Source: Candidatus Latescibacterota bacterium
Lineage (GTDB): Bacteria; Latescibacterota; UBA2968; UBA8231
Assembly (NCBI GenBank): GCA_965200315.1
Contig: OZ241362.1
Coordinates: 4,416,001-4,480,000, forward strand
Reading direction: 5' to 3'
Length of the DNA stretch: 64,000 nt
Positions within the stretch are counted from its first letter, which is position 1. Every line of letters begins with the position of its first letter. Under the pieces are notes generated by a model. That model was not told where the DNA came from and did no database searches. It saw only the letters and a list, made by a program, of their open reading frames with translations. Both the position numbers and the translations under genes were made by a program. This document shows, one piece after another, positions 9,538 to 38,541 of this stretch.

Positions 9538-9717
9538 ATGGATGTCGAAACTTGGAAAGCCCTATGGCAATTCGTCTTTATCGCCGCCAGCGTCCTCTTT
9601 TACGTCATTGTCATCGCCGTCGCCTACAAGGGCTTTGGCGATGTGGCCCAGATGATCCGCAACATGGCCGCCGGCCGCGGGGCCAGTGAAGCCGCCGCTG
9701 ACGCCGAGCGCACGTGA
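9538..9717 (+). CDS. 59-aa single-TM small membrane protein (absent from ORF track)
   Basis: MDVETWKALWQFVFIAASVLFYVIVIAVAYKGFGDVAQMIRNM...ERT*; fills the gap exactly, GGAG upstream, GTGA overlap with next gene. Confidence 0.8.
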   Translation: MDVETWKALWQFVFIAASVLFYVIVIAVAYKGFGDVAQMIRNMAAGRGASEAAADAERT

Positions 9718-12228: not shown

Positions 12229-14193
12229 ATGTCTATAAAACCCGAGCGGACAGCACCCAAGGAGGCAGACGGAATACCGGCTTTTACCGTCAAATCCGTG
12301 CTGGTTGGATGCGCCGGGGCCTTCAGCGTGTCGGCCGGGGCCGCCTACGGGACCCTCTATCTACACGGCTCCTTTATGGCCTTGGGCACCAGCATGCCCG
12401 GGGCGGTGTTCATCCTCTTCCTACTGACCCTCTTTATCAATCCCCTGCTCAAGCTCGTGCATCCGCGCTTGGGACTCAATCGGCGCGAACTGCTAGTCGT
12501 CTATGCTATGATGGTGATGGCCTCGCCGATCCCGACCCTCTTCGTCGGCAAATTCCTCAGTGCCATTAGCTACCCCTTCTACTATGCCACCGCTGAAAAC
12601 GAGTGGCGGCAACTGATCCACCCCTACATCCCCGATTGGCTGATGGTCCACGACGTGGAGACCGTCCGCAAATTTTACGAGGGCAGTGGACGCGATGAAC
12701 CCATTCCTTGGGAAGTATGGCGCAGCGTCATCGCGATGTGGACGCCCTTTATCTGCGCCCTCTTCCTGATGATGATTTCCTTCATGGCGATCCTGCGCAA
12801 ACAGTGGATTGAGCACGAGCGGCTGATCTATCCCCTGATGCAGGTGCCGCTGGCTATGACCGAGGAGGGCGAAGACGACCAAAAGCTAAGCCCCTTTTTC
12901 AAAAATCCCGTCATGTGGGCCGGTTTTGCCATCCCCGCGCTGTGGGGCACGTTGCACGGGCTGTACAACTACTTTCCCGAGACCATCCCCATCGCCCAGA
13001 ACGTCGATCCCGTGCGCATGGACGTACCGGTTTTCCGCCGCACGGCCGACCTGTATGTTGCGCTGCGCTTCAACATCATTGGTTTCTTCTACTTTCTCAA
13101 GACCGACATCGCCTTCAGCCTGTGGTTTTTCAACCTGCTCTCTTTTGCGGTGCGCGGCATTTTTGGCATTCTCGGCGTGATCAGCAGCGAGACGGGGGGG
13201 GCCGGCCACGCGGTACGCGATCCCTTTTTGGCCTACCAGTCGATGGGCGCGATTCTCGTGCTCTTTTTGGGCGGCATTTGGACGGCGCGCAAGCATCTGC
13301 GAGGTGTGTGGCGCAAGGCTTTCAAAGGCGACGATAGCATTGACGACAGCGACGAAATCCTCTCCTATCGCGCGGCCCTGCTTGTGCTGGCGGTTTCTTG
13401 TCTGGTGATAGTAGGTTGGCTGGGGCTGGCCGGGCTTCCTCCGATCTTCGGACTGGCCATTCTCTTCTTAGGCGTCGTCATCATCTTTGGCTATTCGCGG
13501 GTGGTGGCCGAGGGCGGACTTTCGGATGGCTCACCGCCGGTGGTGCCAGCGGGGATTTTAGTGTCCGCAGTGGGTTCGTCGGTCATCGGTGCCCAAGGTC
13601 TAGTCGTGCTGGCAACGACCTTCCTGTGGACCACTGGGCGCAATTTCGTCATGGTCTCCTGCGCCAATAGTCTGCGGCTGGGCGAGGAGTTGGGGCGCAA
13701 CCGCCGACCGCTCTTTTGGGTCATCGTCTTGGCGCTAGTCGTGGCCGTGGGCGCGGCCGTGTGGATGGTGATGCTGCTCAGCCACAAATACGGAGCAATC
13801 AACCTGTGGATTTGGAGCGGTGGCAACTACAGCTATATAGAAAAAGTCCTCCGCACGCCGACCGATTTCTACGGCTGGGGCTGGGTCAATATGGGGATTG
13901 GCGTGGCCATTATGACCGGATTGATGGTCGCACGTTGGCTCTACGTGTGGTGGCCGCTGCATCCGCTGGGCTACGTGATCGGGCCGATCTGGATCATGGA
14001 CCACTTGTGGTTCAATATGTTCATCGCTTGGGGGATCAAGGTGCTCGTGCTCAAATACGGGGGCGTGCGGCTCTACCTGAAGACGCGACCTTTTTTCATG
14101 GGGATGATCCTCGGCTATTTCACGCCCGGCGGGTTTTACCTGATCGTCGATCACTTCACCGGCATGACTTGGAACGTGATATTCTGGGGTTGA
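12229..14193 (+). CDS. Polytopic membrane protein, DUF6785/DUF6784-type putative (peptide) transporter
   Basis: ELLVVYAMM, LRKQWIEHERLIYPL, RVVAEGG, WWPLHPLGY, LKYGG...RPFFMGMILG; many TM helices. Confidence 0.8.
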   Translation: MSIKPERTAPKEADGIPAFTVKSVLVGCAGAFSVSAGAAYGTLYLHGSFMALGTSMPGAVFILFLLTLFINPLLKLVHPRLGLNRRELLVVYAMMVMASPIPTLFVGKFLSAISYPFYYATAENEWRQLIHPYIPDWLMVHDVETVRKFYEGSGRDEPIPWEVWRSVIAMWTPFICALFLMMISFMAILRKQWIEHERLIYPLMQVPLAMTEEGEDDQKLSPFFKNPVMWAGFAIPALWGTLHGLYNYFPETIPIAQNVDPVRMDVPVFRRTADLYVALRFNIIGFFYFLKTDIAFSLWFFNLLSFAVRGIFGILGVISSETGGAGHAVRDPFLAYQSMGAILVLFLGGIWTARKHLRGVWRKAFKGDDSIDDSDEILSYRAALLVLAVSCLVIVGWLGLAGLPPIFGLAILFLGVVIIFGYSRVVAEGGLSDGSPPVVPAGILVSAVGSSVIGAQGLVVLATTFLWTTGRNFVMVSCANSLRLGEELGRNRRPLFWVIVLALVVAVGAAVWMVMLLSHKYGAINLWIWSGGNYSYIEKVLRTPTDFYGWGWVNMGIGVAIMTGLMVARWLYVWWPLHPLGYVIGPIWIMDHLWFNMFIAWGIKVLVLKYGGVRLYLKTRPFFMGMILGYFTPGGFYLIVDHFTGMTWNVIFWG

Positions 14194-14200
14194 TTCTCAT

Positions 14201-14231
14201 TTGACAGGCACTTGTTATTTTGCGTTATATT
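14201..14231 (+). promoter_or_regulatory. Sigma70-like promoter upstream of the FlgD-Ig gene trio
   Basis: Perfect TTGACA at 14201 and TATATT at 14226 (19-bp spacer, long), then AGGAG RBS. Confidence 0.45.
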
Positions 14232-14267
14232 CGCCGTGAGATTTTCTGCTTTTAGGAGATGGCCGGT

Positions 14268-16322
14268 ATGAAATCCAAGCTCTGTTTGGCAGCGGCGTGT
14301 ATGGCCATAGTCCAAGTCTGCACGGCTGGAGCGCAAGTGTCGCAATTCCGTCTCGGCGGCGCTGATGGCCTCGATTGGGAAGAGCAGACCCTGATCAATT
14401 TGATGGTCGATAACCTCGCGATCCCCGGCTCGATCCAGCCGCTGGAGCTCAAGCCCGACGTCAATGTGGTGACCCGGCTACGCCACTGGACGCGCTATCG
14501 GCAGCCGATTGACATCAGCTATCAAGAGGGGATGCCCCGCATCTGGCGGGCAATCGGCGACGTCTCCCGGCCCGGGCACGTCTCCAACCCGATGGAATTT
14601 ATCGACGGGGATCTCAACACCTTTTACGAAGGGCGCGACTTTCAGGGCAGTGGCGGACTGGGAGGCATCTGGGGCGAGTTCTACACGCTCGATATGGGCA
14701 TGCAGATTCCCGCCGATCACTTCAAGTTGGTGCCGCCCGAGGGCAACGACCCCTTCTTCCAAGAACCGTACCGACCCAACTACAAATTTGAAGCCTACGA
14801 GTTGACGGCCAGCAACGACAAGGTCTTCGTAGAAAGCCAACAACCCCCGCAATTTCGCTCGGGTGTCTCCGTCGCCAACACGCCGTCGGCTTACTATCTG
14901 CCGCTAGACAAACTGTTGGCTAAGGTTGATCAGAACTTCGACGCCGTTATCGAGATCGACTTTCCGCTTCAGTATCTGCGCTTCTTCCGCATGCGAGTAG
15001 TACCTGATCTGCCTCATAAGTTCTCGCGCTACGCGCTGGCCGAGCTAGAGGTTTACGGCCGCGGTTTTGTTCCCCGGGCGCGCTGGCTATCCCAAGTGAT
15101 CGATATGGGCGATCTAATCAATGTCGGCGAAGTGAACTTCGGCTTGAGTACCTATCGGCGCGACGGGGATCAATTGATCGAATCTCCCGCCGCCAAGGCC
15201 GGAGTCAATATCGAGATCAAGACCGGGCTGGACGACGGCCCCATCGCCTATCACTCGTACAACGACTTGGCCCAGCCCGTGGAAGTGGAAAAGGACGTCT
15301 ACGCCAAGCTCAAACCGCGCGTGTGGCCGTGGGATCCACCGGCCGTGGGTTGGCAGGGCGTCATTGCCGCCGACATCAATAACTGGAGCTTCTGGTCGCC
15401 ACCGATCCGGGTTTCAGGACAGCGGCCCCGCGTGCCTAAGGGGCGCTATATTCAGCTACAAATCCAGCTAGAGACCAAAGCCTTGTGGGAGTTCGCCCGT
15501 CTCGATTGGATCACCATCGAGACCTCCCCGTTGTTGGCCGACCGGATCTTGGGCGAGGTCGCTGCGGTTGACCAATTGCGCCCCGACGGCAAAGTGCCAC
15601 AAGTGCCCGCAGGCGCACTGACCAAGTTCATCCTCGACTTGCGCGCTGAGTTTTCCGCCGCCGGCCAGCAGGGATTTGACGCGGTGCGGCTCGGCATGCC
15701 TTCTACGGGCCGGGTGCTGGGGCTGGAGATGGGCGATCCGCTGGCGACTGTGGAGCCGGACAGCATCGTCGACGAAGTGGACGAGTTGGCGGTTTATTTG
15801 CCGCAGATGATCGGGCCGGACACCAACGACGGTATTCGGTTGCACCTAGAAACGACCGTGTATGGTGCGTCTGACCAGTTGCGCGCCGAGGTCTTTGCGC
15901 GGCAGGGCGATTCGCTGCCCCAAAGCGTGGAAGGTGGCGACGCCAGCGACGAATTGGGCACTGACCAGTTGCGGGTATTAGTCAGTTCCGGTTCTCTCGA
16001 ATCCGTGCTGTCCGACGTGGCGATTACCCCCCCAGTCTTCACGCCCCAAGGAGACACTATCAACGACCAAGTGGCCATTGAATACACCTTATTCAGCGTG
16101 CTCGATGCGGTCGAAGTGGACGTCGAGTTGCTGACTTTGGCCGGTCAGCGGGTGCGGAGCCTATCGGGTGGAGTGCAGGGTGCTGGGCATCACGCACTGC
16201 AATGGGATGGCCGCGATGAGGCCAATCAACTCGTCGCGCCAGGCGTGTATCTGGCGCGCATTGGGGCCAACACCGACCGAGGCCGGGAGGTGCGCTTCGG
16301 GGCGGTGGCCGTAGCCTACTAA
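14268..16322 (+). CDS. Secreted protein with C-terminal FlgD Ig-like domain (paralogue 1)
   Basis: Signal peptide; discoidin-like FYTLDMG segment; WSFWSPP; FTPQGDTIND...WDGRDEANQLVAPGVY; ends AVAY. Confidence 0.85.
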   Translation: MKSKLCLAAACMAIVQVCTAGAQVSQFRLGGADGLDWEEQTLINLMVDNLAIPGSIQPLELKPDVNVVTRLRHWTRYRQPIDISYQEGMPRIWRAIGDVSRPGHVSNPMEFIDGDLNTFYEGRDFQGSGGLGGIWGEFYTLDMGMQIPADHFKLVPPEGNDPFFQEPYRPNYKFEAYELTASNDKVFVESQQPPQFRSGVSVANTPSAYYLPLDKLLAKVDQNFDAVIEIDFPLQYLRFFRMRVVPDLPHKFSRYALAELEVYGRGFVPRARWLSQVIDMGDLINVGEVNFGLSTYRRDGDQLIESPAAKAGVNIEIKTGLDDGPIAYHSYNDLAQPVEVEKDVYAKLKPRVWPWDPPAVGWQGVIAADINNWSFWSPPIRVSGQRPRVPKGRYIQLQIQLETKALWEFARLDWITIETSPLLADRILGEVAAVDQLRPDGKVPQVPAGALTKFILDLRAEFSAAGQQGFDAVRLGMPSTGRVLGLEMGDPLATVEPDSIVDEVDELAVYLPQMIGPDTNDGIRLHLETTVYGASDQLRAEVFARQGDSLPQSVEGGDASDELGTDQLRVLVSSGSLESVLSDVAITPPVFTPQGDTINDQVAIEYTLFSVLDAVEVDVELLTLAGQRVRSLSGGVQGAGHHALQWDGRDEANQLVAPGVYLARIGANTDRGREVRFGAVAVAY

Positions 16323-16339
16323 GCATGGAGTTTCAATCA

Positions 16340-18283
16340 ATGGGCTTGCGCACGACAATTTCTCGCTTGGCGACCCTGTGCATAGCTGCTGTGGTCCTCG
16401 CTCCACAACCAGCAGTTGCGGAAGTCCGCCAGTGGGTGGTGGGTGGGGACGAAGGAGCCGCTTGGCGGGAACACGAGTTGCTTTCCACCGCGATGAGTTT
16501 CGACGTGCCGGGTGCCATCCAACTCGTAGCCTTTACCTCTAAGGACAACGTCATTCCGAGTCTGACTTGGGTTGATGGGTTTCCGAGTGGCTACGTGGAG
16601 GAACGCGCCCAAGCACTGATTTGGGACAACGTAGCGGTCGTGCGCCCCCTGTTGGAGATCGTCGATGGCATCGACACGACCTCCACCCACCTCGCGTTTA
16701 AACGCTTTGGCATCGCCCAAGACGGCACCAAGTTTTTCTTTGATTTAGGGACCCGCTTTCCCGCCAATCGAATTGCGTTTTTTCCGCGCTTAGAGGGCAT
16801 CAGTTCAGAGGGGCGTCCCTTCAGCGAAGACTACATCCGCGGCTACGTGCTCAAAGTCAATGACGGCGCGAGCTTCAACGAGCGGGACGAGCCGATCTAT
16901 ACCCCCATAAAGCGCGTCGACTTTACCCGCGAGAACACGACGCAGATCGACTTCCCCCTGCAATTCGTCCGCTACATTGAATTAGAAGTCACCTCGGCTA
17001 GCCCGTTTGAACTGGCCGAATTTCAACTCTTCGGTACGGGATTCGCGCCGGCCGGCTCCTATCGGTCAAAGATCATCGACCTCGGAGAGCCAGCTAATCT
17101 CAGCCGCATGGAATGGACGCTGGAAAAGCTGCGTCAGAGCGGCGACGAGCTAATCGTCGAGCCAGCCGCCGATGCCGATTTGACGGTGGTGATGCGCACC
17201 GGCCTAGACGACAACCCCCGGGTCTATTACGAGTACGTCGATCTCTTTACCCGCGAGCGGCAGGTCGTCTCCGAAGACGAGTACAAGGCCCTCGACGAAA
17301 GTGTGCGCGGCCCGATTGACGACGACCAAGTCAACTGGAGTTTGTGGTCGCCCCCCTTCCTTGAGTCCGGCCAGCCCATCCAGCTACCCAGCCCAAGGCG
17401 CTACTTCCAGTTTGAGGTGCGAATCGAAAGCGGCGCGATTCTCGACGGCTTGCGGCTCACCTCCCTGCGCGTCGAACACACGATCCCGCCCGTGGCCCAG
17501 CTCTTGGTGGCTGAGGTTTCCGAGTTAGACGTCCCCCGTCCCCCCGGCGATGTGCCCATTGTAACCGCCGGGGACTTTACGACGTTTGCCTACGATGTCG
17601 TAGCCCAAATCGAGGAGGCGGACACCGGCTTTGACGCCCTGCGCATCCTCACACCCCAATCGACGCCCGTGTTTCGGCAATTCTTCACCGGAGAAGATGG
17701 GGTCGAGGTCACACCCGACAGCGTGCAAGCAGACCTAGGCAGTCTGACTATTTTCTTTCCTTCGCAACGGCCAGCGATCGGCATTCACCGCATGCGCGCC
17801 GTATTCGACTCGCAGATTTTCATCCAAGGCACCTCGGTCGAAGCTGAGGTCTTTGACTCGCAGGCCGAGGACGGCGTGCCGCAGCGAGTGCAGCCCGGCG
17901 ACGCCAACCCAGAAGTGCTGACCAATGCTCTGCGGGTGCTGACAACGGCCGCTTCGGCCAGCCAGTTGGTGTCCTCCTTGGCAGTAAGTAGTCCGGTCTT
18001 TACCCCCAATGGAGACGGTATCAACGACCAAGTAGAATTGATCTACAGCCTGTTGCAGTTGGTCAAGCCGGTCGCAGTGGCAGTTGAAATTCTCGATTTG
18101 GCCGGTCGCCCCGTGCGTACCGTCCTCAAAGCCGAAAGCACGAGCGGAGCCTATGCAGTGGCTTGGAACGGGCGCGACGATCGAGGACAGGTCGTTCCGC
18201 CGGGCCTGTACCTCGCCGTGGTCCAAGTCCACACTGAGCGCGAGACACTTGTGCGTTCTAGCAGCATGGGCGTGGCGTATTGA
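16340..18283 (+). CDS. Secreted protein with C-terminal FlgD Ig-like domain (paralogue 2)
   Basis: Signal peptide; FFDLGTRFPANRIAFFP; WSLWSPP; SPRRYFQF; FTPNGDGIND...WNGRDDRGQVVPPGLY; ends GVAY; start placed after GGAG (track 16325). Confidence 0.85.
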   Translation: MGLRTTISRLATLCIAAVVLAPQPAVAEVRQWVVGGDEGAAWREHELLSTAMSFDVPGAIQLVAFTSKDNVIPSLTWVDGFPSGYVEERAQALIWDNVAVVRPLLEIVDGIDTTSTHLAFKRFGIAQDGTKFFFDLGTRFPANRIAFFPRLEGISSEGRPFSEDYIRGYVLKVNDGASFNERDEPIYTPIKRVDFTRENTTQIDFPLQFVRYIELEVTSASPFELAEFQLFGTGFAPAGSYRSKIIDLGEPANLSRMEWTLEKLRQSGDELIVEPAADADLTVVMRTGLDDNPRVYYEYVDLFTRERQVVSEDEYKALDESVRGPIDDDQVNWSLWSPPFLESGQPIQLPSPRRYFQFEVRIESGAILDGLRLTSLRVEHTIPPVAQLLVAEVSELDVPRPPGDVPIVTAGDFTTFAYDVVAQIEEADTGFDALRILTPQSTPVFRQFFTGEDGVEVTPDSVQADLGSLTIFFPSQRPAIGIHRMRAVFDSQIFIQGTSVEAEVFDSQAEDGVPQRVQPGDANPEVLTNALRVLTTAASASQLVSSLAVSSPVFTPNGDGINDQVELIYSLLQLVKPVAVAVEILDLAGRPVRTVLKAESTSGAYAVAWNGRDDRGQVVPPGLYLAVVQVHTERETLVRSSSMGVAY

Positions 18284-18299
18284 GAAAGGAGCGGTATCT

Positions 18300-20588
18300 A
18301 TGAACCGACTATGGCTTTGTTTGCTGACGCTGGTTTTGCCAGCGAGTTTTGTCCATTCTCAAGAGGTTTTTGAAATAAACACCAAGGCGCAGTGGGAGAC
18401 GTGGACCTACCCGATCGGGGCTGTTGACTTGCGAGAGGATGGATCGATCCGGCCGGTCAAATTCGAGCAGCCCTTCAACGCCGCCCCGAGTTCCCCTCTG
18501 TTCACGCATGAGCTAAAGAAGGTCAAAGAGCAGCGCGGCGGGGTGTGGAAGGCCGGGTCCAACGCGGCTGATGCCCACCTGATCATCGACGACGACACCG
18601 CGACCTATTGGAAGCCCAATCAAGACGACCCGCTCGACACTTGGTGGATCGAAATCGATTTGGGCCGCATGGTGGCCGTCAAGGAAGTTCGCCTGCACTT
18701 CCCCGACGAGGAAGGTGCCCGCCCGCTGCGGGCACTCCGGGTCTTTGGATCCGACGGCAAATTTCAATCCATTACCGATGACGTCTTTCTCTTCAACCTC
18801 ATCGGCGGCACGACCAAGCGCAACGAAGAGACCCTCTTGTCGTATCCAGTGGCCTTTGGCGAAGCAACCAAACGGGTGTTGAGCTTTGGCCAACCTGCCG
18901 AGGGCGCCTCCACAACCTTCGCGCCCACCCAATACATCCGCATCATAGCCGACGTCAAGAGTGAGGACGCGGCCCTTGCCGAGGTCGAAGTCATCTCGTT
19001 TGGACAGAACATCGCCCAAGGGACCGTGGCGCGGGGAGGCATAATCGACGATCAGGGCAAGGAGCGTGCGCCGGCCATGATCGACGGCAATGTCAATACC
19101 TTCTGGGAGGAACTCAACTGGAGTGAGACCGGCCAGTTCATCGCCCAGTGGCGCTGGGATTTGGGTGCTGTCTTTTGGGTCAACCGCGTCATCTTCGTAG
19201 CGTTTCAGGAGACCACCACTTGGGGTCGGCCGCGCATCTTGCGCCACCGGCTGCTGGGGTCGGCCGGCGAGCTCAAGCCCTCCGGCGATATCGATTTCGA
19301 CGTACTTTTCGACTTCCCTGCGCCAGGTGATTGGAACAATCCCGAACCAATCACCTATCTCATGCACCCGTACCGGCCCCTGCGCTATCTCGAAATGATC
19401 TTCGGCGGCAGCAGCAGCGGCGCGATGGCCGAAGCCGTCGTCGTACCCACCGGCTATGTCGCTGAAGTGGAATTGCGCTCGGACTTCCTCAAGGTAGACG
19501 ACAGCCCCAAGGTTTTCCGCACCCTCGAATGGGACGCCGACTTACCCCCGGGAACGCAAATTTTGGCGCAGACGCGCTCGGGTAGCGGTCTCGAAGAGGG
19601 CAATACGTATTACCACCGCAAGGGCCACGAAGTGACCGAGGACGAATACAACGCCTTGAAGAAACGGTGGAAAGGCGACATCGTGCCCTACATTCGGCCG
19701 ACCCAAGATTGGAGCGGCTGGAGCAACACCTACCTGTTCTCCGGTCAAGAGTTTCTCTCGCCCAGCCCGAGGCGCTACGTGCAGTTCAGGGTGTTACTCA
19801 AATCGGATAGCCCAGATGTGGCCCCCACCCTAAAAGGGCTGTGGCTCAACTACACGGATTCGTTCCTCAACGGGGCGCTCGGCCAAGTCACCCCCAACGA
19901 GGCCCAAGTGGGCCAGCCGGAAAACTTTACGTACGTGTTGCAGCCGGACTTCAAATCGGGCGACAAGGGCTTTAACCTCCTGCGGCTAAACACGCCATCG
20001 CAAGCGGCCGTCGAGAGCGTGGTCATCCGCGTTGCCGGTACCGAAGTCGCGCCGGTCTCCCTAGTGCTGTTGCCCGACTCGCTGGTAGTGGAACTGCCGC
20101 AAGTCGTCCGGCGGCAAGAGGTCGAAATTGATCTACAGGTCAACGTATTCTCCAATCCCTACCTCTTTTCTGCCTTTGTCGGCCACACCGACGAGATGGA
20201 GTTCTGGCAGCAGGTTGATCCGGCTGGGCGGGCGGCCACCACGGTATTTCTGCCCGAAGTGCCGGCGTCCGAGAGCCTGCTCGACAAAGTCGCTATTTCG
20301 CCCAAGGTCCTCACGCCCAACGGCGACGGAATCGGCGACCACGCCGAGATTCGCTTTGCGGTATTAAAGACAGACGCCCCGATAGCAGTCGATATCTATG
20401 CGCTCGACGGTCGGCAGGTAGGCTCGTTGGCGGGCGGCCGCAAAAGCGATGGCTTCCTCGTCTATGAGTGGAATGGCGAAGACGACGCAGGCCAGCGCGT
20501 ACCCCCGGGGATTTACGTGTGCCGCATCCAAATCAATGCCCAAGCCGAAGTCCAAAACTTGGCGCAGATCATCAACGTAGCTTACTAG
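18300..20588 (+). CDS. Secreted protein with two discoidin-like segments and C-terminal FlgD Ig-like domain (paralogue 3)
   Basis: MNRLWLCLL signal after AAGGAG; WIEIDLGRMV, WDLGAVFWV; WSGWS; SPSPRRYVQF; LTPNGDGIGD...WNGEDDAGQRVPPGIY; ends NVAY. Confidence 0.85.
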   Translation: MNRLWLCLLTLVLPASFVHSQEVFEINTKAQWETWTYPIGAVDLREDGSIRPVKFEQPFNAAPSSPLFTHELKKVKEQRGGVWKAGSNAADAHLIIDDDTATYWKPNQDDPLDTWWIEIDLGRMVAVKEVRLHFPDEEGARPLRALRVFGSDGKFQSITDDVFLFNLIGGTTKRNEETLLSYPVAFGEATKRVLSFGQPAEGASTTFAPTQYIRIIADVKSEDAALAEVEVISFGQNIAQGTVARGGIIDDQGKERAPAMIDGNVNTFWEELNWSETGQFIAQWRWDLGAVFWVNRVIFVAFQETTTWGRPRILRHRLLGSAGELKPSGDIDFDVLFDFPAPGDWNNPEPITYLMHPYRPLRYLEMIFGGSSSGAMAEAVVVPTGYVAEVELRSDFLKVDDSPKVFRTLEWDADLPPGTQILAQTRSGSGLEEGNTYYHRKGHEVTEDEYNALKKRWKGDIVPYIRPTQDWSGWSNTYLFSGQEFLSPSPRRYVQFRVLLKSDSPDVAPTLKGLWLNYTDSFLNGALGQVTPNEAQVGQPENFTYVLQPDFKSGDKGFNLLRLNTPSQAAVESVVIRVAGTEVAPVSLVLLPDSLVVELPQVVRRQEVEIDLQVNVFSNPYLFSAFVGHTDEMEFWQQVDPAGRAATTVFLPEVPASESLLDKVAISPKVLTPNGDGIGDHAEIRFAVLKTDAPIAVDIYALDGRQVGSLAGGRKSDGFLVYEWNGEDDAGQRVPPGIYVCRIQINAQAEVQNLAQIINVAY

Positions 20589-20646
20589 CTAAATTGCAGC
20601 TAGCTCCTAGCCCATTCGGCAAAGCCTCTTGAGGGAGGGGTATTTT

Positions 20647-23280
20647 ATGTATTTGTCTCGCATCCGACCGGCATTGTGTGCAGCACTCGCGTTGCTGGCG
20701 CTAGACTGGAGCATCGCTCTAGCTCAGTTGACTACAGGCTATCGGCCCATAGCCGAGCCAGGGATCTACGGGGTGCGTATCCATCCCGGTGCGCTAGCGC
20801 CCAACCGCCGCAAGTTCTACCTTCCGCAAAATCTCTTCTACGAATACGGCTGGCGGGGCTGGGAGTACAGCAACTACGCCCGCGACGAGTACGAGCGCTA
20901 CGTGGACATACAACTAGAGGGAAACCGCCACTACGACGCCTTCGGCAACTACATCGCCCGCGGCTGGACGATTTACGACTGGACCGAGAACAACCCTCTG
21001 CGCCAAGGCAGCGGCATCTTCAAAAGCCCGCGCTACAGTAGTTGGTTCGACCGCGTGGTGATCTCGTCTGCCCACAAGGGCCAGTTTCACACCGCGCTAA
21101 CAGTCGGCGACGCCATTCGCACCACCCTGACCCCACTGACCTTCTCCAAGCCGACCTTTAACGGCATCCAGTGGGACTTCCTCTCCGACAAGTACGCATT
21201 CACGTTCCTCGGCTCGCGCATCAGCTCACCGGCCAACCCGGCCGGAACCCAGTCTGAGGCCGCTGCCCTCGTGGAAAACTCCACCCGCCTACTCGGCGGC
21301 CGGGGCGTGGCCCAAGTGGGCGACTTCGCCAAGGTTGGGGCGACGTGGGTCAGCGCCCACAACGCGCGGAGCACCCTCGACATGGGGGACAATTCGCTCA
21401 AGGGCGTCTTGACCACGCCGCAGAACACGGGCAGCGTCGAGACCGTGACGATCCTCATCTCAGACGATTCGCCTGAGTCGAGCGACAACGGTGCGCTACT
21501 GTTTTTCGACCGAGTGCTGATCGACGGCGAGATTCACCCGGAAATCACCCCCATTGTTCGCGGCGGAATCCGCACCGGTGGCAGCTTAGAGGCGAGGGGT
21601 GTGGACAACATCGAACTGATCTACGACATCCGCAACAGCTTCCGGCCCACCGAAAAGGTGCCGACCTATCAGGAGGCGAGCAAAATCGAGTTTGAGTTGA
21701 TTCTGGCCAACGACTACCGAGTGGCCGTCACGTCCAACGTGCAAACCGACCGCTTGGGCGACCCCGTCTTTTTGCCCGTGGCCCAAGCCGAAGGCGAAAT
21801 ATCCGACGGGTCGAACCAACAGTTTTTGCGCTTTGAGTACGGGTTGCCCACTGGCAGCGATGTAATCGGGGTTGACTTTGAGATTCTGAGCCGCGGCGGC
21901 CTAGACCTGCGCGCCGAGTTCGTGCGCAACCGACGCTTCCGGCGCTTCCCCAACCAAAACCTAGAGCAACATACCCTCGCCGAAGACAAGGGAGAGGCCG
22001 GTTATATCACCGCGTCTTATACCTCCTATCCGTGGTTTGCCTACGGCGAGATGTTCACCATGGACCCCGATTACAGCACGACCGCGTTCATGGCCAACTC
22101 GCTGGGCGGCATCGATTACAGCAGCGAAATTTTTCACCTCTTCGAGTTCGTCGATGACAACGACGACCAAGACCGCTTTGCCGACTGGCAGCGGGCTGGT
22201 CAATTCGGCACCGGAGTAGGTGCTTCAGGCGGCTCGGTGGGTTCCGACTTAGAGGTGTTCCCCGGGCTAGACGAGAACAACGACTTCGTCTCCGACTTCA
22301 ATCAAAACCGCAACTCGCGGCCCGACTACGACGAGCCTTTCTTGCGCTATGAAGTCGATCCTCCGGCCTTCCTCTTCGGCATGGACATGAACAACAACAC
22401 CCTGATCGACCGCTTTGAAGACGACCGTCAGCCCGACTATCCCTATGACCGCGATCACCGTGGCTACAACGCCTACGGCGGTCTGATGTTCAGCGAGGAC
22501 GCACAACTAACCCTTGGCCGATTGAGCGAGCGCCAGCTAAGCTCAGCGCGCAAGAGCAAGGCCAACTACGGCTTGTTCACCGTGCGCTGGAACTTCCCGG
22601 GCCTGCGAATCGCGCTCTTTGAGCACGCGAAACTCGTGTCGGACAACATCCCGGAAGACCGCCTGCGCTGGATAGACCCAACGGGCCGGACGGACTTTAC
22701 CGATCCACTCGACAACCAAAACACTTTCGTCAACAGCATCTACTTGCAGGCAAACTACAACCGCATCCGCAACTTCAGGGCGACTGCCAAGGTCAAACAC
22801 GAGATTTTCAACCAGCGCGATGAGCAGGCCGACAAGCGCGACCGCTCGTTTTTCGGGCTGATTACCAAGGCCGACTACACCATTCCCATTGGCGCGGACC
22901 TGACTGTCTGGCCCAAGTGGAAGAGTACCTTCAGGCGCGAGACTCCCACCGATCCGTCACTGGCCAATATCCGCGAGCTAGAGGAAACCCTGTTCTTGAT
23001 TTCGCGCTATGCGATTCTCGAACAGACTTGGATCGCGCTCGGTCTAGAGTTCAGTTGGTTTGAGAACTTGCACGACCGGCCGGCCGAGCTACAAGTCGGT
23101 TATGTCGAGGATTTTACCAGCCGCGTCTATTCGATTCTGTTCTCCAATACGTCGGCCTATTTGGGCTACCAGCTAACCTTAAATGCGGGCCTTCAGCTAG
23201 AGGAGCAAAACTTCGAGGCCGAGCAGCGCAACACCTCGCTCGGATTCATTCGCGTTTTCGCCAGCACTGGGCAAGAGTAA
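20647..23280 (+). CDS. Large exported protein, probable outer-membrane beta-barrel with acidic Ca-binding-like loops
   Basis: Signal peptide (SIALA); DDNDDQDRFAD, LDENNDFVSD, MDMNNNTLIDRFE; C-terminal third has alternating amphipathic beta-strands. Confidence 0.6.
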   Translation: MYLSRIRPALCAALALLALDWSIALAQLTTGYRPIAEPGIYGVRIHPGALAPNRRKFYLPQNLFYEYGWRGWEYSNYARDEYERYVDIQLEGNRHYDAFGNYIARGWTIYDWTENNPLRQGSGIFKSPRYSSWFDRVVISSAHKGQFHTALTVGDAIRTTLTPLTFSKPTFNGIQWDFLSDKYAFTFLGSRISSPANPAGTQSEAAALVENSTRLLGGRGVAQVGDFAKVGATWVSAHNARSTLDMGDNSLKGVLTTPQNTGSVETVTILISDDSPESSDNGALLFFDRVLIDGEIHPEITPIVRGGIRTGGSLEARGVDNIELIYDIRNSFRPTEKVPTYQEASKIEFELILANDYRVAVTSNVQTDRLGDPVFLPVAQAEGEISDGSNQQFLRFEYGLPTGSDVIGVDFEILSRGGLDLRAEFVRNRRFRRFPNQNLEQHTLAEDKGEAGYITASYTSYPWFAYGEMFTMDPDYSTTAFMANSLGGIDYSSEIFHLFEFVDDNDDQDRFADWQRAGQFGTGVGASGGSVGSDLEVFPGLDENNDFVSDFNQNRNSRPDYDEPFLRYEVDPPAFLFGMDMNNNTLIDRFEDDRQPDYPYDRDHRGYNAYGGLMFSEDAQLTLGRLSERQLSSARKSKANYGLFTVRWNFPGLRIALFEHAKLVSDNIPEDRLRWIDPTGRTDFTDPLDNQNTFVNSIYLQANYNRIRNFRATAKVKHEIFNQRDEQADKRDRSFFGLITKADYTIPIGADLTVWPKWKSTFRRETPTDPSLANIRELEETLFLISRYAILEQTWIALGLEFSWFENLHDRPAELQVGYVEDFTSRVYSILFSNTSAYLGYQLTLNAGLQLEEQNFEAEQRNTSLGFIRVFASTGQE

Positions 23281-23392
23281 GCGGAAACGGCGAAAAATTG
23301 AACTTGCTAAGCACTCTTAAAAGACGTAAAATTAAAAATTCTTAGAGGATGAATCGTCGATAGCCTCATCACTACTCTCACGGAGGAAATGT

Positions 23393-24319
23393 ATGAAAAA
23401 ATCCTTTTTCTTTATTTTCGTTTGCGCCGCAGCGTTTGCCTTAGTCAGCCCGGCTAACGCGCACGTCGGTGCTGAGTATTTCATCCCGGGCGTACCCAAT
23501 CCCAGTGCCATGACCATCGACGGTCTCGAAGACGATTGGGGCTGGCTGGACGAGGAATTCATCCTCACGACCGAGGGCATGTTCACTGCCGGGGGCGAGA
23601 CCATCGCAAAAGAAGACTACGACGTCAGCATTCTGATGGCGTGGAGCACGCCGCCAGACAACCGCTTCTACTTCTTCATCCGCGTTCAAGACGATACACT
23701 GCGTCTGCTCGAAGAAGACCAGAAGCGCTGGTGGAACGACGACTGCATCCAGATTACCTTCGACCCGGATCACTCGGGTGGCGACTTCTTGGGCGAAAAC
23801 GTCGATCAGGTCCTCAACGCCCAGCGCTATCACCTGCGCATCAAGCCGCTGCCGGGACAGCCCGTGGCGTACAACAGCCTGCTCGAATACATCGACCTAC
23901 CGCCGATTGGCTGGAGTTCCGATATGTTTGAGGGACAGGCCACTGGCGACATTTTCGAGATCGCTTGGACCGTCAATCCGCCGGATGCCGAGCATTTTTC
24001 GACCAACGTCTCGTACACCTTTGAGTTCCGCAACGCCTTTTGGGACATCCACGGTGTAACCCAAGACGAGGCGGTTCGGCACATATTCGAAAATGATCAA
24101 GTGACCCATATCGGCGTACGTCCGCTTGATGGCGATGGCGGCGAGACCGGTGCCAAGCACCAGCTCTATCCGCTGGGCGGCTCCACGGGCCAAGACCAGA
24201 AGGGCGACCAGATGCTCGACTACATCCTGTTGGAGGCCGACGAAGTCGAGGAAGAGACGGCCGTCGAAGCCACAAGTTGGGGTCGAGTCAAGAGCCATTT
24301 GAACAGCCAGCTCGACTAA
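23393..24319 (+). CDS. Secreted acidic CBM9/DOMON-like protein with C-terminal TAVEATSWGRVK motif
   Basis: Signal peptide (ANA-H); MTIDGLEDDW, NRFYFFIRVQDD, DDCIQITFDPDHSGG resemble CBM9-like sandwiches. Confidence 0.65.
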   Translation: MKKSFFFIFVCAAAFALVSPANAHVGAEYFIPGVPNPSAMTIDGLEDDWGWLDEEFILTTEGMFTAGGETIAKEDYDVSILMAWSTPPDNRFYFFIRVQDDTLRLLEEDQKRWWNDDCIQITFDPDHSGGDFLGENVDQVLNAQRYHLRIKPLPGQPVAYNSLLEYIDLPPIGWSSDMFEGQATGDIFEIAWTVNPPDAEHFSTNVSYTFEFRNAFWDIHGVTQDEAVRHIFENDQVTHIGVRPLDGDGGETGAKHQLYPLGGSTGQDQKGDQMLDYILLEADEVEEETAVEATSWGRVKSHLNSQLD

Positions 24320-24352
24320 GCACGGCTGAATTGTATCAGCGGTCTAGCAAAG

Positions 24353-24387
24353 CGAGGAGGGGCAGCCGCCCCTCCTCGTCTTGTATT
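24353..24387 (+). terminator. Stem-loop (terminator or mRNA stabiliser)
   Basis: Perfect 11-bp stem cgaggaggggc-agcc-gcccctcctcg followed by weak U-tract tcttgtatt. Confidence 0.65.
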
Positions 24388-24458
24388 AGGCGCGGGTATC
24401 TCTCTCCGTTGAAGGCGGGGAGCGGATTGAAACAACAAAGAAGCGAGGATAGCCAGCC

Positions 24459-25214
24459 ATGAAGACATTGGGCAGCTTGCTCCTATTGCTAATCGCGCTC
24501 GCCGGATGTGGCTTGAAGTTTGGGTATCGGCATTTTACCGGTCCGGTGGTGCCCACGGAAATCGCGGATGACAACTACTTGGTCGGCGACGATCACAGCA
24601 TCACTTTCGTCAAAGATCGTCTAGAGGTAGCGATGTTGCCCATGTCGACCGAGGCCCTGAACCGGCAATTCTCCGGCGTCTCAGCGGCCCCAGCGGGTTT
24701 TACCCTGCCCAATCCCTACGCCGTGGCGACCAATCCCTACACCTATGGCGATTGGACGCCGCCCGGTGAAGAGCAAGCACCGACGCGGTTTACCGTTTTT
24801 TTAGTCAAGGTCAAAAACTACGCCTATCCCAAAGTTCGCCTAAATCCGGCCAACATCGAATTGATCGCCCCCAACGGGCGTCGCTATGAGGCGCTCACTC
24901 TCCTCGCCCTGACCGAGTACTACTGGCCCTATGCCCAAGCCTATGGCGGCAATGCGCGCAAGGGCTTTAAGGCGCGGCGCGATCTCTTGCAGCGCACTCT
25001 GTTTGCCGACGACATGATCTTCAGCGGCCAAGAGCAAGAAGGGTACTTGGTCTTTCCCCCGCTCGACCGCGACGTCGAAGAATTTACGCTGTGGGTCCGC
25101 GAGATGGTGCTGAGATTCGACTTCCGCGACGCTCCTGTGGAGACCGTCGATATCCCCTACGACTTCCAGCGCGAAGTGTACTACGCCCGCACCCCACGTG
25201 AAAACAAGAGCTAA
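24459..25214 (+). CDS. Hypothetical lipoprotein
   Basis: Lipobox LAGC; 251-aa ORF with GAGG RBS, operonic with the PPIase gene. Confidence 0.8.
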   Translation: MKTLGSLLLLLIALAGCGLKFGYRHFTGPVVPTEIADDNYLVGDDHSITFVKDRLEVAMLPMSTEALNRQFSGVSAAPAGFTLPNPYAVATNPYTYGDWTPPGEEQAPTRFTVFLVKVKNYAYPKVRLNPANIELIAPNGRRYEALTLLALTEYYWPYAQAYGGNARKGFKARRDLLQRTLFADDMIFSGQEQEGYLVFPPLDRDVEEFTLWVREMVLRFDFRDAPVETVDIPYDFQREVYYARTPRENKS

Positions 25215-25215
25215 A

Positions 25216-26886
25216 ATGGCGGCGCGTACGATCGGTTGTTTGTCTCTGGTCATTATCGCTGCCTGTAGTTCCCCCCAAAGCGACAAAAGCGTCGTAGCCC
25301 GCGTCGGCGAAGTCGCTATTACCTTTGAAGATTTACAGCGCTTCAAAAGCGACATGCCCCCCCTCCTGCTCTCCACGCGGGAGGGCGTCGCTGCATTCAA
25401 AGAATATCTTCAAGCGATGATCGCCATGGAGCTCATGTTGCTAGAGGCGCAAAAGCGGCAAATCGCTAGCGACCCAGATTTTATAGAACAATGGGAACAG
25501 GCGCGCAGAGAAAAGCTCTTCCAAGAATTCGTCAAGCTAGAAATCCAAGACAAAATTGACCTGCCGCAAGAGGAAATAAAGCGGCAGTGGAGTGAGAGCA
25601 AGTGGAATCGGCTACTAAAACTCGCTCGCATCCGCTCGAGTACCGCCGACGAGGCCGCCCAAGTCCTGAGTGCCCTAGAGAGTGGGACCCCGTTTGAGGA
25701 ACTGTCCGGCCAACCCCTGATCCACCACCAGCAAGGGAGTCTGCAAGGGGCGTTGAACTCCTATGTTGGACGAAACAATATCGAAGAGTTCGGGGTCTCT
25801 TTCGATGTGGCGGAGGTACTCTTCGAGCTCGCTAAAGGCGAAATTAGCGAGCCGCTGAAGGTCGAAGCCGGCTACGACATCTATAAGGTGTTGGACGAAC
25901 GTCCCGCGCCAGCCAGCTATTACTTGGTCTTTTCCCAAGGGACACTAATGGCCGCCTTCGGCGAACGTCGGCGAGTGCTCATTGCCGAGCTGATGCGGGA
26001 ATACAATGTCGAACTAGATCCCCGTAGTATCTCCGAGTTAGCCACCCTCGTCGCCCAAGACAATGTGGAGGCTATCGACACGGAGGGCATTGTGGGCCGC
26101 TACAACGGTGGTCAGATAACGCTAGCTGATTTCCTAGCGCTCTACCCGAAAGTGCGTCGGGTCGCCTCAGTGGGCACTGACAGTAGCGGTATCGATGAAT
26201 TCGTTCGGCTCTATCTGGTGCCCGAGATGCTCTTCCCCGTGGCAATCGAACGCCGCGGCTTGGCGCAGGAGCCAGCGATAGCCGACTGGCTGCGGAGCAA
26301 AAAACGGGCGATGCTCATCGAAGAGCTGCGCCGCCGCGACGTGGAAGAGCACGTCGATCTGAGCGAAGATGTGCTTCGACGCTACTACGAGGCCAATCTG
26401 CATCGTTTCATGGAAGATCGAGAAGTGACCGTGCAGGAGATCCTAGTTGCCACCCAAGAAGAGGCCGAGGCGCTAGCGGTACGCATTCGAGCGGGTGAAG
26501 ACATGGCGACGTTAGCTACAAGGCACAGCATCCGCCAAGGCAACGACAAGGGCCGCTTCCACATCCACTCCTTTGAGCGGGTGGTTTTCGGCGAACTGTT
26601 GACAGAGGCCCTAGCCGCAGAGGTTGGTGTGCTCACTGGTCCGGTGGCCATCACTGGGACTCCACACCGCCAAGGTGGTTTCTCGCTGTTTGAGGTGCTG
26701 GAAAAGAGCCCCGAAAAGCCTAAGCCATACGACGGGGTGGTCAAACAAGTCCGCTACTGGTGGACCAAGAGGGAGGAAAATCGCCTCTATAACGAACTGA
26801 TTGACCGCCTGCAAAAAAAGCATGCCGCACAAATCTCCATCTACGAGGATCGCTTGGCGACCATGTATGACACGGCTCAGCTATAG
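25216..26886 (+). CDS. Parvulin/PpiC-type peptidyl-prolyl isomerase lipoprotein (SurA/PrsA-like, two rotamase-like domains)
   Basis: Lipobox IAAC; VVARVGEVAIT; LFELAKGEISEPLKVEAGYDIYKV; VQEILVATQEEAEALAVRIRAGEDMATLA. Confidence 0.85.
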   Translation: MAARTIGCLSLVIIAACSSPQSDKSVVARVGEVAITFEDLQRFKSDMPPLLLSTREGVAAFKEYLQAMIAMELMLLEAQKRQIASDPDFIEQWEQARREKLFQEFVKLEIQDKIDLPQEEIKRQWSESKWNRLLKLARIRSSTADEAAQVLSALESGTPFEELSGQPLIHHQQGSLQGALNSYVGRNNIEEFGVSFDVAEVLFELAKGEISEPLKVEAGYDIYKVLDERPAPASYYLVFSQGTLMAAFGERRRVLIAELMREYNVELDPRSISELATLVAQDNVEAIDTEGIVGRYNGGQITLADFLALYPKVRRVASVGTDSSGIDEFVRLYLVPEMLFPVAIERRGLAQEPAIADWLRSKKRAMLIEELRRRDVEEHVDLSEDVLRRYYEANLHRFMEDREVTVQEILVATQEEAEALAVRIRAGEDMATLATRHSIRQGNDKGRFHIHSFERVVFGELLTEALAAEVGVLTGPVAITGTPHRQGGFSLFEVLEKSPEKPKPYDGVVKQVRYWWTKREENRLYNELIDRLQKKHAAQISIYEDRLATMYDTAQL

Positions 26887-28225
26887 GGCACTGGGTTTTT
26901 TCGCCTGCGCATTGCTTTGCGCTTGCGACGGCGACGGCGACCACTTAGCAGCAGCCAAGCGTCTAGCGACAGAAGGCAAATACACCGATGCCGTCGCCGC
27001 GTGCCACCAAGCACTCGCAGCCAATAGCCAGCACCTTGAAGCCCTCTTGCTCTTGGCTCGCCTCAATCTGGTTCAAGGCCATCTAGCGCCGGCGGCGCAA
27101 CTGGCCGAGCAGGCCGTTCAGCTAGCCCCCGACTACGCCGATGCCTATCTACTTTTGGGCGATATCTACATCCGGCAGCGGCGCAACGCCGATGCTGCAA
27201 TAATCTATCAAGAGGGTCTGCACACCGTCCCCGAGCGGGAGGATTTCTACCGCAAACTCGCCATAGCCTACGCCGACGACGGGCACTACAGTGAAGCCAT
27301 AGAGGCCCTCCAACAAGCCCTGCAACACTCCGACGACGCAGCCATTCACTACAATTTGGGCGTGGTCTATGAGCGGCAGGCGCACTACGACGAGGCTAGC
27401 CGCGCATTTGCCCGCACCACTGAGATAGACACCGCCTATGGCGACGCTTATTTTCGGCTGGGGCAAATCCAAGGCAAGCAGGGCCTATTCGAGGAGGCCG
27501 CGGCTAACTTCGCGCGCATGATCACCCTAGACCCAAACTACGCCCCGCCCTATACTGGGCTTGGCCAAGTCCGCATGCAGCAAGGTCGCTCAGACGAAGC
27601 CGAGCGCCTCTTTAAGCAAGCCATTGCCCTTGACCCCTTTGAAGGCGAAGCCTACCACCGACTCGGTACGCTCTTTTTGCGGCGGGGAGACCAAGAACGG
27701 GGCGAGAAGCTCTTGGCCATGTTCAAACGCATCCAACCCGTCAGCGCCGATATCGAGCGTTTCCGCTATATCCTCAACCTCTACCCCGACGACGCCAACG
27801 CGCACTACAACCTAGGAGTGCTCTACGGAGGGCTTGGTCGCTACGCCGAGGCCGGCGTCGAGTACGCTGCGGCATTGCGCATCAACGACCAAGATCTCAG
27901 TGCCCGCAACAACTTGGCCAATGTTCTCCTGCGGCAGCGACGCATCGACGAAGCGATCCACCACTACGAGATCGCGCTGGCGCTCAATCCGCGCTATGCC
28001 CAAGGCTTTAACAATCTGGGCTCGGCTTATCTGATGAACGGCGATTTGCAGCAAGCCATCCAAGCTTTTGCCAAGGCGCTCAAGCTAGCACCGGACAACG
28101 CCGATACGCACTTCAATCTTGCCCGTCTTTACAAAAGCCAAGGGCTGGATGCGCGGGCCGCCGCTGAGATGAAGATCTACAATCAGCTTGTACAGGCCGC
28201 TAAAAAAAAAGAACACAGTGAGTGA
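26867..28225 (+). CDS. Tetratricopeptide repeat lipoprotein
   Basis: Lipobox LCAC; many TPRs (HYNLGVVY, AYFRLG, ARNNLANV, FNNLGSAY). Confidence 0.92.
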   Translation: MTRLSYRALGFFACALLCACDGDGDHLAAAKRLATEGKYTDAVAACHQALAANSQHLEALLLLARLNLVQGHLAPAAQLAEQAVQLAPDYADAYLLLGDIYIRQRRNADAAIIYQEGLHTVPEREDFYRKLAIAYADDGHYSEAIEALQQALQHSDDAAIHYNLGVVYERQAHYDEASRAFARTTEIDTAYGDAYFRLGQIQGKQGLFEEAAANFARMITLDPNYAPPYTGLGQVRMQQGRSDEAERLFKQAIALDPFEGEAYHRLGTLFLRRGDQERGEKLLAMFKRIQPVSADIERFRYILNLYPDDANAHYNLGVLYGGLGRYAEAGVEYAAALRINDQDLSARNNLANVLLRQRRIDEAIHHYEIALALNPRYAQGFNNLGSAYLMNGDLQQAIQAFAKALKLAPDNADTHFNLARLYKSQGLDARAAAEMKIYNQLVQAAKKKEHSE

Positions 28226-29735: not shown

Positions 29736-29751
29736 CAAAAGGAGCGTTGCC

Positions 29752-38534: not shown

Positions 38535-38541
38535 GGTATAT

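Follow-up and report, generated by a model that had tools for sequence, protein, structure and literature searches.

A recurrent, multi-copy envelope gene cassette of Latescibacterota with a locus architecture like that of polysaccharide utilisation loci and with non-Sus parts

The closest described counterparts of the locus reported here come from Bacteroidota. Polysaccharide utilisation loci (PULs) are present there as several diverged copies per genome, in each of which a barrel gene, a lipoprotein, exported lectin-type proteins and an inner-membrane importer are accompanied by catabolic genes that vary from copy to copy. In the secretion system of type IX (T9SS), substrates of type B carry CHU_C as their signal domain. 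Two reports describe the binding of type B proteins to PorP/SprF-like barrels in Bacteroidota (PMC9143113, PMC12618676), the binding of PorP to both the type B protein and the lipoprotein PorE, which has TPR and beta-propeller domains (PMC9143113), and a frequent linkage of type B substrates to PorP/SprF-like genes in Flavobacterium (PMC12618676). Here we describe a stretch of 64,000 nt from a Candidatus Latescibacterota bacterium (contig OZ241362.1, positions 4,416,001-4,480,000 of the forward strand; hereafter the window, in whose positions coordinates are given), in which nine genes at 12229-28225 (g1 to g9; Table 1), all on the plus strand and all encoding exported or membrane proteins, belong to a gene set that recurs in related genomes. 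The set is PUL-like in its locus architecture and partly akin both to T9SS type B sorting and to the OPT transporters. Our leading reading, which we put at about an even chance, is that the locus is one copy of a modular, multi-copy, PUL-like capture-and-uptake cassette of Latescibacterota built from non-Sus parts. For this phylum, passages of a genomic analysis picture substrates crossing the outer membrane through non-specific porins and make no mention of the cassette (PMC4454575). A search of the full-text literature, outside which most subscription journals and supplements lie, found no description of the gene set, nothing on its parts (DUF6785, DUF6784, Latescibacter with FlgD or with type IX secretion) and nothing joining the FlgD Ig-like domain to T9SS.

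Membership of the cassette was read from its recurrence. Scanning one genome per species for the barrel protein g5 gave coding relatives numbering at least 411, of which the best 80 loci were retained (by record taxonomy 65 from Latescibacterota, 13 from Gemmatimonadota, one from Handelsmaniibacteriota and one without assignment). The window proteins were compared with these loci by tblastn and counted only where the 10-kb flanks were complete, which left 47 loci after 33 shorter ones had been dropped, and 40 after the further removal of seven near-identical orthologues (L001-L007). Near the barrel gene in these 40 loci lie g3-type genes in 38, relatives of g7 in 37, g2-type genes in 34, the peptidyl-prolyl isomerase (PPIase) gene g8 in 33, g4-type genes in 32, and the TPR gene g9 and the CBM9-like g6 in 31 each. 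In 30 of the 40 a relative of the FG-GAP/ASPIC protein is encoded no more than 10 kb from the barrel gene, usually beside the TPR gene, and its counterpart in the window (u2 at 9714-11315) is a conserved member of the cassette although it lies outside the nine-gene block. DUF6785, the family of g1, occurs in only 15 of the 40 and is an optional member. Gene order and strand vary among cassette types while membership is constant, even where identity between the barrels has fallen to 44-69%. Because it survives shuffled order, both strands and diverged barrels, this membership does not represent inherited synteny. The preliminary description of the locus, made from the letters alone, had proposed nine co-oriented, tightly spaced envelope genes forming a lineage-specific machine with its own chaperone. 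The layout holds, with intergenic gaps of 2-139 nt and overlaps at g7/g8 and g8/g9, and the idea of a machine is supported by the recurrence of the gene set in related loci, the barrel model of g5 and the lack of a match to any known system as a whole. The genes proposed do occur together elsewhere, but DUF6785 is not a fixed member, and the FG-GAP/ASPIC gene, beyond the coordinates given there, belongs to the set.

The cassette is also repeated within genomes. OZ247580.1 and CBDCDC01 each carry at least five cassette loci among the best 80 of the 411 or more relatives, and many genomes carry three or four; within OZ247580.1 the barrels are 98, 68, 64, 48 and 46% identical to g5 of the window. 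Several copies accompanied by binding proteins, importers and catabolic enzymes, as in PULs, are what these loci present, substrate specificity aside. The parts are different. The barrel g5 is no TonB-dependent transporter, as none of the nine proteins has a Plug or TonB_dep_Rec match; the lipoprotein g7 has no SusD/RagB match and no PDB relative; the binding proteins are a fixed trio with sorting-type tails; and the fixed members include a PPIase, a TPR lipoprotein and an FG-GAP/ASPIC protein but no glycoside hydrolase. Pfam and NCBIfam searches of the nine proteins gave no SusC/SusD, TonB, usher, Omp85, LptD or PorP/SprF family and, as had been read from the translations, no TonB-dependent receptor, ATP-binding cassette (ABC) ATPase or component of type I to type VI secretion systems. 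Judged by families, no single known system appears to account for the set. The analogy with Sus and PULs drawn earlier is strengthened by the number of copies per genome, the lectin-type domains, the interchangeable importers and the variable catabolic neighbours.

The importers associated with the cassettes, of OPT fold or of binding-protein ABC type, favour uptake as the direction of transport without proving it, where the preliminary description had left the choice between uptake and export or display open. The AlphaFold2 (AF2) model of g1 has a predicted local distance difference test score (pLDDT) of 83.8 and a predicted template-modelling score (pTM) of 0.86, and over the whole chain it takes the fold of barley YS1, with Foldseek matches to 7wst_A (E 2.2e-8, template-modelling score (TM) 0.64/0.69) and 7wsr_A (E 2.7e-7) at TM 0.63-0.69 overall; all other matches have E of 0.02 or more and TM up to 0.17. 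Sequence identity to YS1 is about 10%, and a search of g1 against PDB sequences returned chance matches only. The Pfam OPT family (PF03169) is not matched by g1 itself, which matches DUF6785 and DUF6784 instead, but it is matched by 2 of 24 homologues (best 5e-6), and precomputed PF03169 assignments are present on 2 of the 120 g1 homologues listed. The YS1 fold together with the OPT matches in homologues suggests that DUF6785/DUF6784 is a distant family of OPT-fold transporters. OPT members are proton-coupled importers.

Where DUF6785 is missing, a different importer is often found. A complete DUF6785 gene is present in 20 of the 47 full-flank loci and a binding-protein ABC importer in 14; no locus has both and 13 have neither, so that an importer is present in 34. 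In two or three of the 13 importer-less loci, part of a DUF6785 gene is seen at the edge of the locus. The ABC importers near cassettes consist either of SBP_bac_1 with two BPD_transp_1 permeases or of Peripla_BP_1 with ABC_tran and BPD_transp_2. Coupling to the cassette can be close for both kinds: in the L040 type the ABC genes begin 50 bp after g9 on the same strand, and in the L013 type g1 follows g5 by 34 bp. The wider surroundings were scanned through 173 flanking proteins, 66 from 10 chosen loci and 107 representatives of the 172 remaining clusters, taken from clusters with two or more members or of at least 230 residues. The enzymes found there vary by cassette and include MR_MLE, GFO/IDH/MocA, xylose-isomerase-like proteins, aldo-keto reductases, sulfatases, a PL4 rhamnogalacturonan lyase, GH130 with an FGGY kinase, and GHL10, beside the peptidases M19, M28 and gamma-glutamyl-transpeptidase. 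TonB/ExbBD, SusC/D and T9SS core components were not among these 173 proteins; T9SS core genes likewise did not turn up in the window, and no whole-genome search was made for them.

The barrel g5, the anchor gene of the cassette, belongs to a large family without a name. It has 366 word-indexed relatives (48-96% identity among the 120 matches listed), and those named among the matches listed are each a 'hypothetical protein' of Latescibacteria or Handelsmanbacteria metagenome-assembled genomes. A profile of 30 members reached 966 clusters at E<=1e-3, 690 at E<=1e-10 and 307 at E<=1e-30 among 1.84 billion representatives. Neither Pfam, even at E<=10, nor NCBIfam gave a match, and against PDB sequences the profile found no outer-membrane protein, only chance antibody matches (E 0.38). 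The AF2 model (mean pLDDT 63.7, pTM 0.59) contains about 20 long antiparallel strands of at least 9 residues at pLDDT 70-90, in residues 173-238, 400-472 and 604-873, outside a confident beta-rich insert at residues 266-397; the highly conserved N-terminal 150 or so residues and the Asp/Asn-rich segment at about 500-600 fall below pLDDT 50. Of its structural matches in the PDB, 58 have E<=1e-3, and those listed are all outer-membrane barrels save for one low-probability row (MtrB, SlpA, LptD, FimD, PapC, BtuB, SusC and porins), with MtrB, SlpA, LptD and ushers at the top (E 4.6e-9 to 1e-5). As TM does not exceed 0.25 throughout, these matches point to a barrel that is no recognisable member of any solved family. 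The model thus bears out the earlier call of a barrel: g5 is predicted to be a large outer-membrane beta-barrel, with closure of the antiparallel barrel suggested by the Foldseek matches. A classical beta-signal with a C-terminal aromatic residue is absent, the protein ending in FIRVFASTGQE, and relatives end in FAGLQ and similar, with Phe 5-8 residues before the C-terminus. In the Asp/Asn-rich segment the columns D503-D509, D542-N554 and D580-D597 are invariant, and the patterns DDNDDQD and DRFE[DN]Dxx[PA]D were taken from it for the genome search. From its loop pattern we take the segment to consist of EF-hand-like loops, which may bind calcium. In two close orthologous loci (L003 12631-13977 and L004 12631-14257), an insertion of 1.3-1.6 kb with an open reading frame (ORF) of 213 residues and no Pfam match lies between the barrel gene and g6.

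The three proteins encoded ahead of the barrel, g2, g3 and g4, are paralogues, as had been recognised, with 26-32% identity at E 1e-25 to 1e-95 (g2/g3 32%). All end in hydrophobic-x-hydrophobic-[A/V]-Tyr, and the same ending is carried by 160 of the 165 family-assigned ORFs of related loci, locus-end fragments aside. Near the N-terminus the family profile matches galactose-binding, CBM32-type lectin domains in the PDB at E 4e-6 to 1e-2, including sialidase (2bzd_A, 3.7e-6), galactose oxidase, a fucolectin-related protein and AlyQ. At the C-terminus it matches FlgD (3.6e-8) and the PorU C-terminal domain (0.018); g4 alone reaches only FlgD, at 0.011. Over 50 trio-family proteins Pfam found CHU_C in 40 at E<=1e-3 (best 6e-10), FlgD_ig in 39, F5/8 type C in 19 and a NedA-like domain in 15, and NCBIfam at E<=1e-3 found the type B model TIGR04131 in 12, the type A model in 5 and the PorU C-terminus in 27. 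For the trio of the window itself, CHU_C scores 27.3 bits in g4 against a cut-off of 27, falls short in g3 and is not found in g2, and TIGR04131 scores 13.9 bits in g3 and 16.7 in g4 against a cut-off of 35, with nothing in g2. The FlgD-Ig domain named in the preliminary description is present, but the tails resemble the T9SS type B sorting domain more than was said there, and one known system may take part in delivery of the trio. Exactly three trio-type genes are found in 35 of the 47 loci. A tree (FastTree, midpoint-rooted) was built of 50 such proteins, encoded in the window and in 18 of the 80 loci. In it the g4-type group holds 17 rows (support 100) and the g2-type group 12 (support 99), with 12 of the 21 g3-type rows as sister (support 95); six divergent cassettes have two g3-like copies that branch before the g2/g3 split. 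Read by eye, the branching order inside the groups looks parallel, which suggests that the cassette was duplicated as a unit. To judge from this tree, the three subunits are not interchangeable.

Together with the barrel, g6 and g7 make up the three families without names around which the cassette core is built. The secreted g6 scores 16.8 bits with Pfam CBM9_1, below the cut-off of 23.4, and its family profile matches the CBM9 module of a T. maritima xylanase (1i82_A, E 3.5e-5). Its C-terminal motif, TAVE-x-x-[ST]W[GA]x[IV]K, was considered as a general sorting signal and rejected, being nearly confined to g6-like proteins in 1.5 Mb: of the 3453 ORFs scanned, it is carried by 49 of the g6 family and by 9 more. 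Eight of these 9 are g6 of the window and 7 ORFs that look g6-like by their tail (5 of about 300-350 residues, 2 short at locus ends), and the ninth, of 199 residues, is unassigned. The lipoprotein g7 carries the conserved motif G-Y-R-H-F-x-G-P after the lipobox Cys. Its profile found nothing in the PDB below E 0.2, Pfam at E<=10 gave only a weak DUF4352 match (E 0.16), and the ESM Atlas returned unnamed lipoprotein clusters only, from Latescibacterota and Gemmatimonadota. More generally, the ESM Atlas search led back only to clusters of the query proteins themselves, either unnamed or DUF, and Pfam at E<=10 added nothing new for g1, g5, g6 or g7. A complex of g5 (residues 128-877, residues 1-127 being left out for size) with g7 (residues 18-251) was predicted at a score of 0.54 (median of 3 runs), against 0.00 for the best control; at least 60% of contacts are common to the runs, with partner pLDDT of at least 77. 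Of 157 solved complexes 116 attained the mark used, as did 2 of 215 mismatches, and a score of 0.60 or less was found in 18 of the 157 solved complexes and in both passing mismatches, so that the pairing of barrel and lipoprotein has weak support. The parvulin-type domains of g8 are clear (Rotamase_2 5e-16, 60.0 bits against a cut-off of 27; Rotamase 3e-10, 41.4 bits against 21.7), and nearly all of the other domains named beforehand were also recovered by Pfam or NCBIfam. The partnership of TPR and propeller genes is not exclusive to the cassette. Further FG-GAP/ASPIC-UnbV genes occur away from it (51190-52971 (-) with 53484-56348 (-), and also 35868-38561 (-)), one of them adjoining the gene of a 954-residue TPR protein, so that the pair forms a separate module.

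From these parts we infer a scheme in which g2, g3 and g4 would leave the cell and be held at its surface by their type-B-like C-terminal domains, forming a fixed trio on the barrel g5. Their CBM32-like lectin domains and the CBM9-like g6 would bind glycan-bearing material, the lipoprotein g7 would be seated on the barrel, and g8, g9 and the FG-GAP/ASPIC propeller protein may act in assembly or as periplasmic tethers. The captured substrate, whole or in fragments, would then cross the outer membrane, possibly via g5 itself, and the step across the inner membrane would fall to the cassette's own importer, here the OPT-fold g1 and elsewhere a binding-protein-dependent ABC importer.

A number of observations weigh against such a capture-and-uptake cassette. 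Energy coupling has no visible source, since g5 lacks Plug and TonB_dep_Rec and no TonB/ExbBD gene was seen for the 173 flanking proteins scanned, and the low model confidence of the N-terminal region and Asp-rich segment of g5 places plug or pore features beyond judgement. There is no glycoside hydrolase among the fixed members; the catabolic neighbours are heterogeneous, some of them peptide-related, and may reflect merely what these genomes commonly carry. Thirteen of the 47 loci have no importer within 10 kb, and the importer counts are inflated by orthologous loci, amounting by reading to about 4 independent ABC types and about 8 DUF6785 types. The type-B-like tails point to secretion and anchoring of the trio, for which g5 need have no part in import, a PPIase with a TPR lipoprotein is typical of envelope biogenesis, and the g5-g7 complex score lies in the weak band.

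Those tails could instead mark a cargo-plus-anchor module resembling T9SS type B, in which the trio would be adhesins secreted by a type IX system for attachment or surface motility, with no import; g5 would play the part of PorP/SprF, and the TPR lipoprotein and propeller protein that of PorE. We regard this as the main rival reading, possible but rather unlikely. It accounts for the CHU_C domain in most of the family, with g4 of the window just above the curated cut-off, for the TIGR04131 and PorU C-terminus matches, for trio genes standing immediately upstream of the barrel gene in the commonest order, and for the usual adjacency of TPR lipoprotein and FG-GAP propeller genes, which recalls PorE. 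By analogy, g5 with g9 and the FG-GAP protein would form a striking parallel to PorP with PorE. Two unrelated proteins of the loci compared, an FG-GAP protein at L014:20795-22549 (-) and a WD40 protein at L003:50-784 (+), moreover pass the type A model TIGR04183 (37.0 and 29.0 bits against 23), so that T9SS-type tails exist in these genomes; going by their tails, they hint at type-IX-style secretion in these Latescibacterota. However, g5 has 877 residues, an inserted beta-rich domain and presumed EF-hand-like loops, and shows no PorP/SprF match at any threshold. PorP/SprF proteins are far smaller. The TIGR04131 scores of the window tails lie far under the cut-off, the invariant Tyr-ended terminal motif is confined here to the trio family and missing from both type A tails, each barrel has three cargo-type proteins, and TPR/propeller pairs also occur elsewhere. 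Display of adhesins alone would further leave unexplained why at least five diverged copies per genome are kept with their own importer and catabolic neighbours. Nutrient capture and T9SS delivery can be combined, with T9SS delivering the trio and capture as its function.

Export or envelope biogenesis offers another account of the barrel: g5 would be a secretion pore, or a SlpA-like tether holding a surface polymer or layer, g1 would act in export or as a flippase, and assembly would fall to the PPIase and TPR proteins. SlpA (8ae1_A, 9.5e-7; 8agd_A; 7zgx_A), LptD and ushers are indeed among its top Foldseek matches, being many-stranded barrels of similar size, and among distant relatives of g5, 3 of 18 match SlpA_C below the cut-off (30.2 bits against 35 at best, E 2e-7), with nothing in the other 15. 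A SurA-like foldase and a TPR lipoprotein would also suit biogenesis, as would the YfiO/BamD match (3e-37) of a TPR partner in the divergent cassette L072. Against this, TM-scores of 0.25 or less, with FimD and PapC at 0.19-0.20, indicate likeness to barrels in general. MtrA/C, LptE and PapD-like chaperones, the partners of such barrels, are absent from the nine genes, as are Usher and PapD families, SLH domains, coiled coils, glycosyltransferases, Wzx/Wzy, ABC exporters and lipopolysaccharide-transport families; g5 itself has no SLH domain, coiled coil or SlpA_C at the curated score. Where g1 is missing, ABC systems that import take its place, g1 has an importer as its solved relative, and several diverged copies per genome would be unusual for a structural tether, all of which makes an export machine improbable. 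That no functional unit is present, unrelated envelope genes having come together by chance in one lineage, is extremely improbable: synteny would be expected anyway among the near-identical loci L001-L007 of close relatives, but constant membership in other orders, on both strands and with the diverged barrels contradicts it.

If the capture-and-uptake cassette is real, its unnamed barrel family of at least 966 clusters, fixed lectin-like trio and interchangeable importers would together be the phylum's own counterpart of PULs. Latescibacterota are widespread, uncultured and thought to degrade algal and other polymers; the cassette would provide a genomic marker for predicting their substrate range, a likely function for DUF6785/DUF6784 as OPT-fold transporters, and a test case for type-B-like sorting tails, and their partner, outside Bacteroidota. 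A bolder version, which we think unlikely, is a new uptake machine in which a calcium-binding, non-TonB barrel capped by a lipoprotein would dock three lectins by their Tyr-ended Ig-like tails and import glycans or glycopeptides without SusC/SusD or a type IX system. Such a machine would represent a third way of polymer feeding in the FCB group beside TonB-dependent Sus complexes and plain porins.

Table 1. Coordinates and assignments of the cassette features in the window
Feature	Position	Strand	Assignment
u2	9714-11315	+	Secreted FG-GAP/ASPIC-UnbV (beta-propeller type) protein; FG-GAP_3 3e-49, UnbV_ASPIC 1e-18 (Pfam)
g1	12229-14193	+	DUF6785 (E 3e-123) and DUF6784 (8e-28); inner-membrane, predicted OPT/YSL fold
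g2	14259-16322	+	Exported lectin-like protein; C-terminal FlgD-Ig/type-B-like domain; ends in VAVAY
g3	16325-18283	+	Paralogue of g2; C-terminal FlgD_ig; CHU_C 24.2 bits; ends in MGVAY
g4	18300-20588	+	Largest paralogue; F5_F8_type_C 4.8e-10, FlgD_ig at C-terminus, CHU_C-like tail; ends in INVAY; ORF opens at 18084, signal-peptide-like start at 18300
g5	20647-23280	+	877 residues, predicted outer-membrane beta-barrel of unnamed family; ORF opens at 20629
g5 Asp/Asn-rich segment	22144-22446	+	Residues ~500-600, nearly invariant, presumed EF-hand-like loops; family signature
g6	23393-24319	+	Secreted CBM9-like protein, conserved C-terminal motif
Hairpin	24352-24379	+	GC-rich, between g6 and g7; 12-bp stem, 4-nt loop, then weak U tract
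g7	24459-25214	+	Lipoprotein of unnamed family
g8	25198-26886	+	Lipoprotein with two parvulin-type PPIase domains (SurA/PrsA-like foldase)
g9	26801/26867-28225	+	TPR lipoprotein; likely start 26867; TPR families in Pfam and NCBIfam

Signal peptides of g2-g6 and lipoboxes of g7, g8 and g9 were read by eye from the translations, and the N-terminus of u2 is likewise signal-peptide-like. The strong hairpin reported after the CBM9-like gene is upheld: it has an energy of -36.8 kcal/mol (z = -6.28, with 0 of 200 shuffles folding as well), and across the close orthologous loci (8 of 8: the window and L001-L007) the stem stays the same while the loop changes. The preliminary description suggested that it may set the stoichiometry of subunits; what the analysis shows is a genuine hairpin that close orthologues share. 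Rfam has no family at gathering score for the hairpin or elsewhere in 9000-31000. Counts of promoter and terminator sites did not exceed those of shuffles, and this hairpin alone stands out.

Downstream of the TPR gene, a fused MFS/spermidine-synthase gene (28188-29735, +; NF037959, E 1.8e-58) overlaps the end of g9. It is followed by two ureidoglycolate-lyase-family paralogues, 53% identical, at 29575-30270 and 31543-32085 (+) on either side of a GFO/IDH/MocA oxidoreductase gene, and by an L-rhamnose mutarotase gene at 32703-33083. The genes after the fused one had been proposed as sugar-type catabolic neighbours of the set; neither they nor the fused gene are conserved beside other cassettes. 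As candidate members, the ureidoglycolate-lyase-like, GFO/IDH/MocA and mutarotase genes were rejected at no more than 14 of the 47 full-flank loci and 7 of the 40 (GFO/IDH/MocA in 7 of 40). The fused gene, in 4 of 47, all close orthologues, and in none of 40, was likewise rejected, as was a PhyH gene (8 of 47, 1 of 40).

Some divergent cassettes have large neighbours of their own. In L072 the TPR partner with the YfiO/BamD match, at 12639-15839 (+), has 1066 residues and also matches a Slam TPR domain. ORFs of about 900 residues with no Pfam match stand beside cassettes at L020:5088-7781 (-), L067:7266-9965 (+) and L067:14159-16921 (+), and L067 has a further ORF of 920 residues with a weak Omp85 match; these ORFs may be further unnamed outer-membrane proteins. 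Genes for Uma2-family putative endonucleases occur both near cassettes (L005:21239-22054, L076:16823-17443) and elsewhere, in the window at 32159-32737 (+) and 50217-51008 (-).

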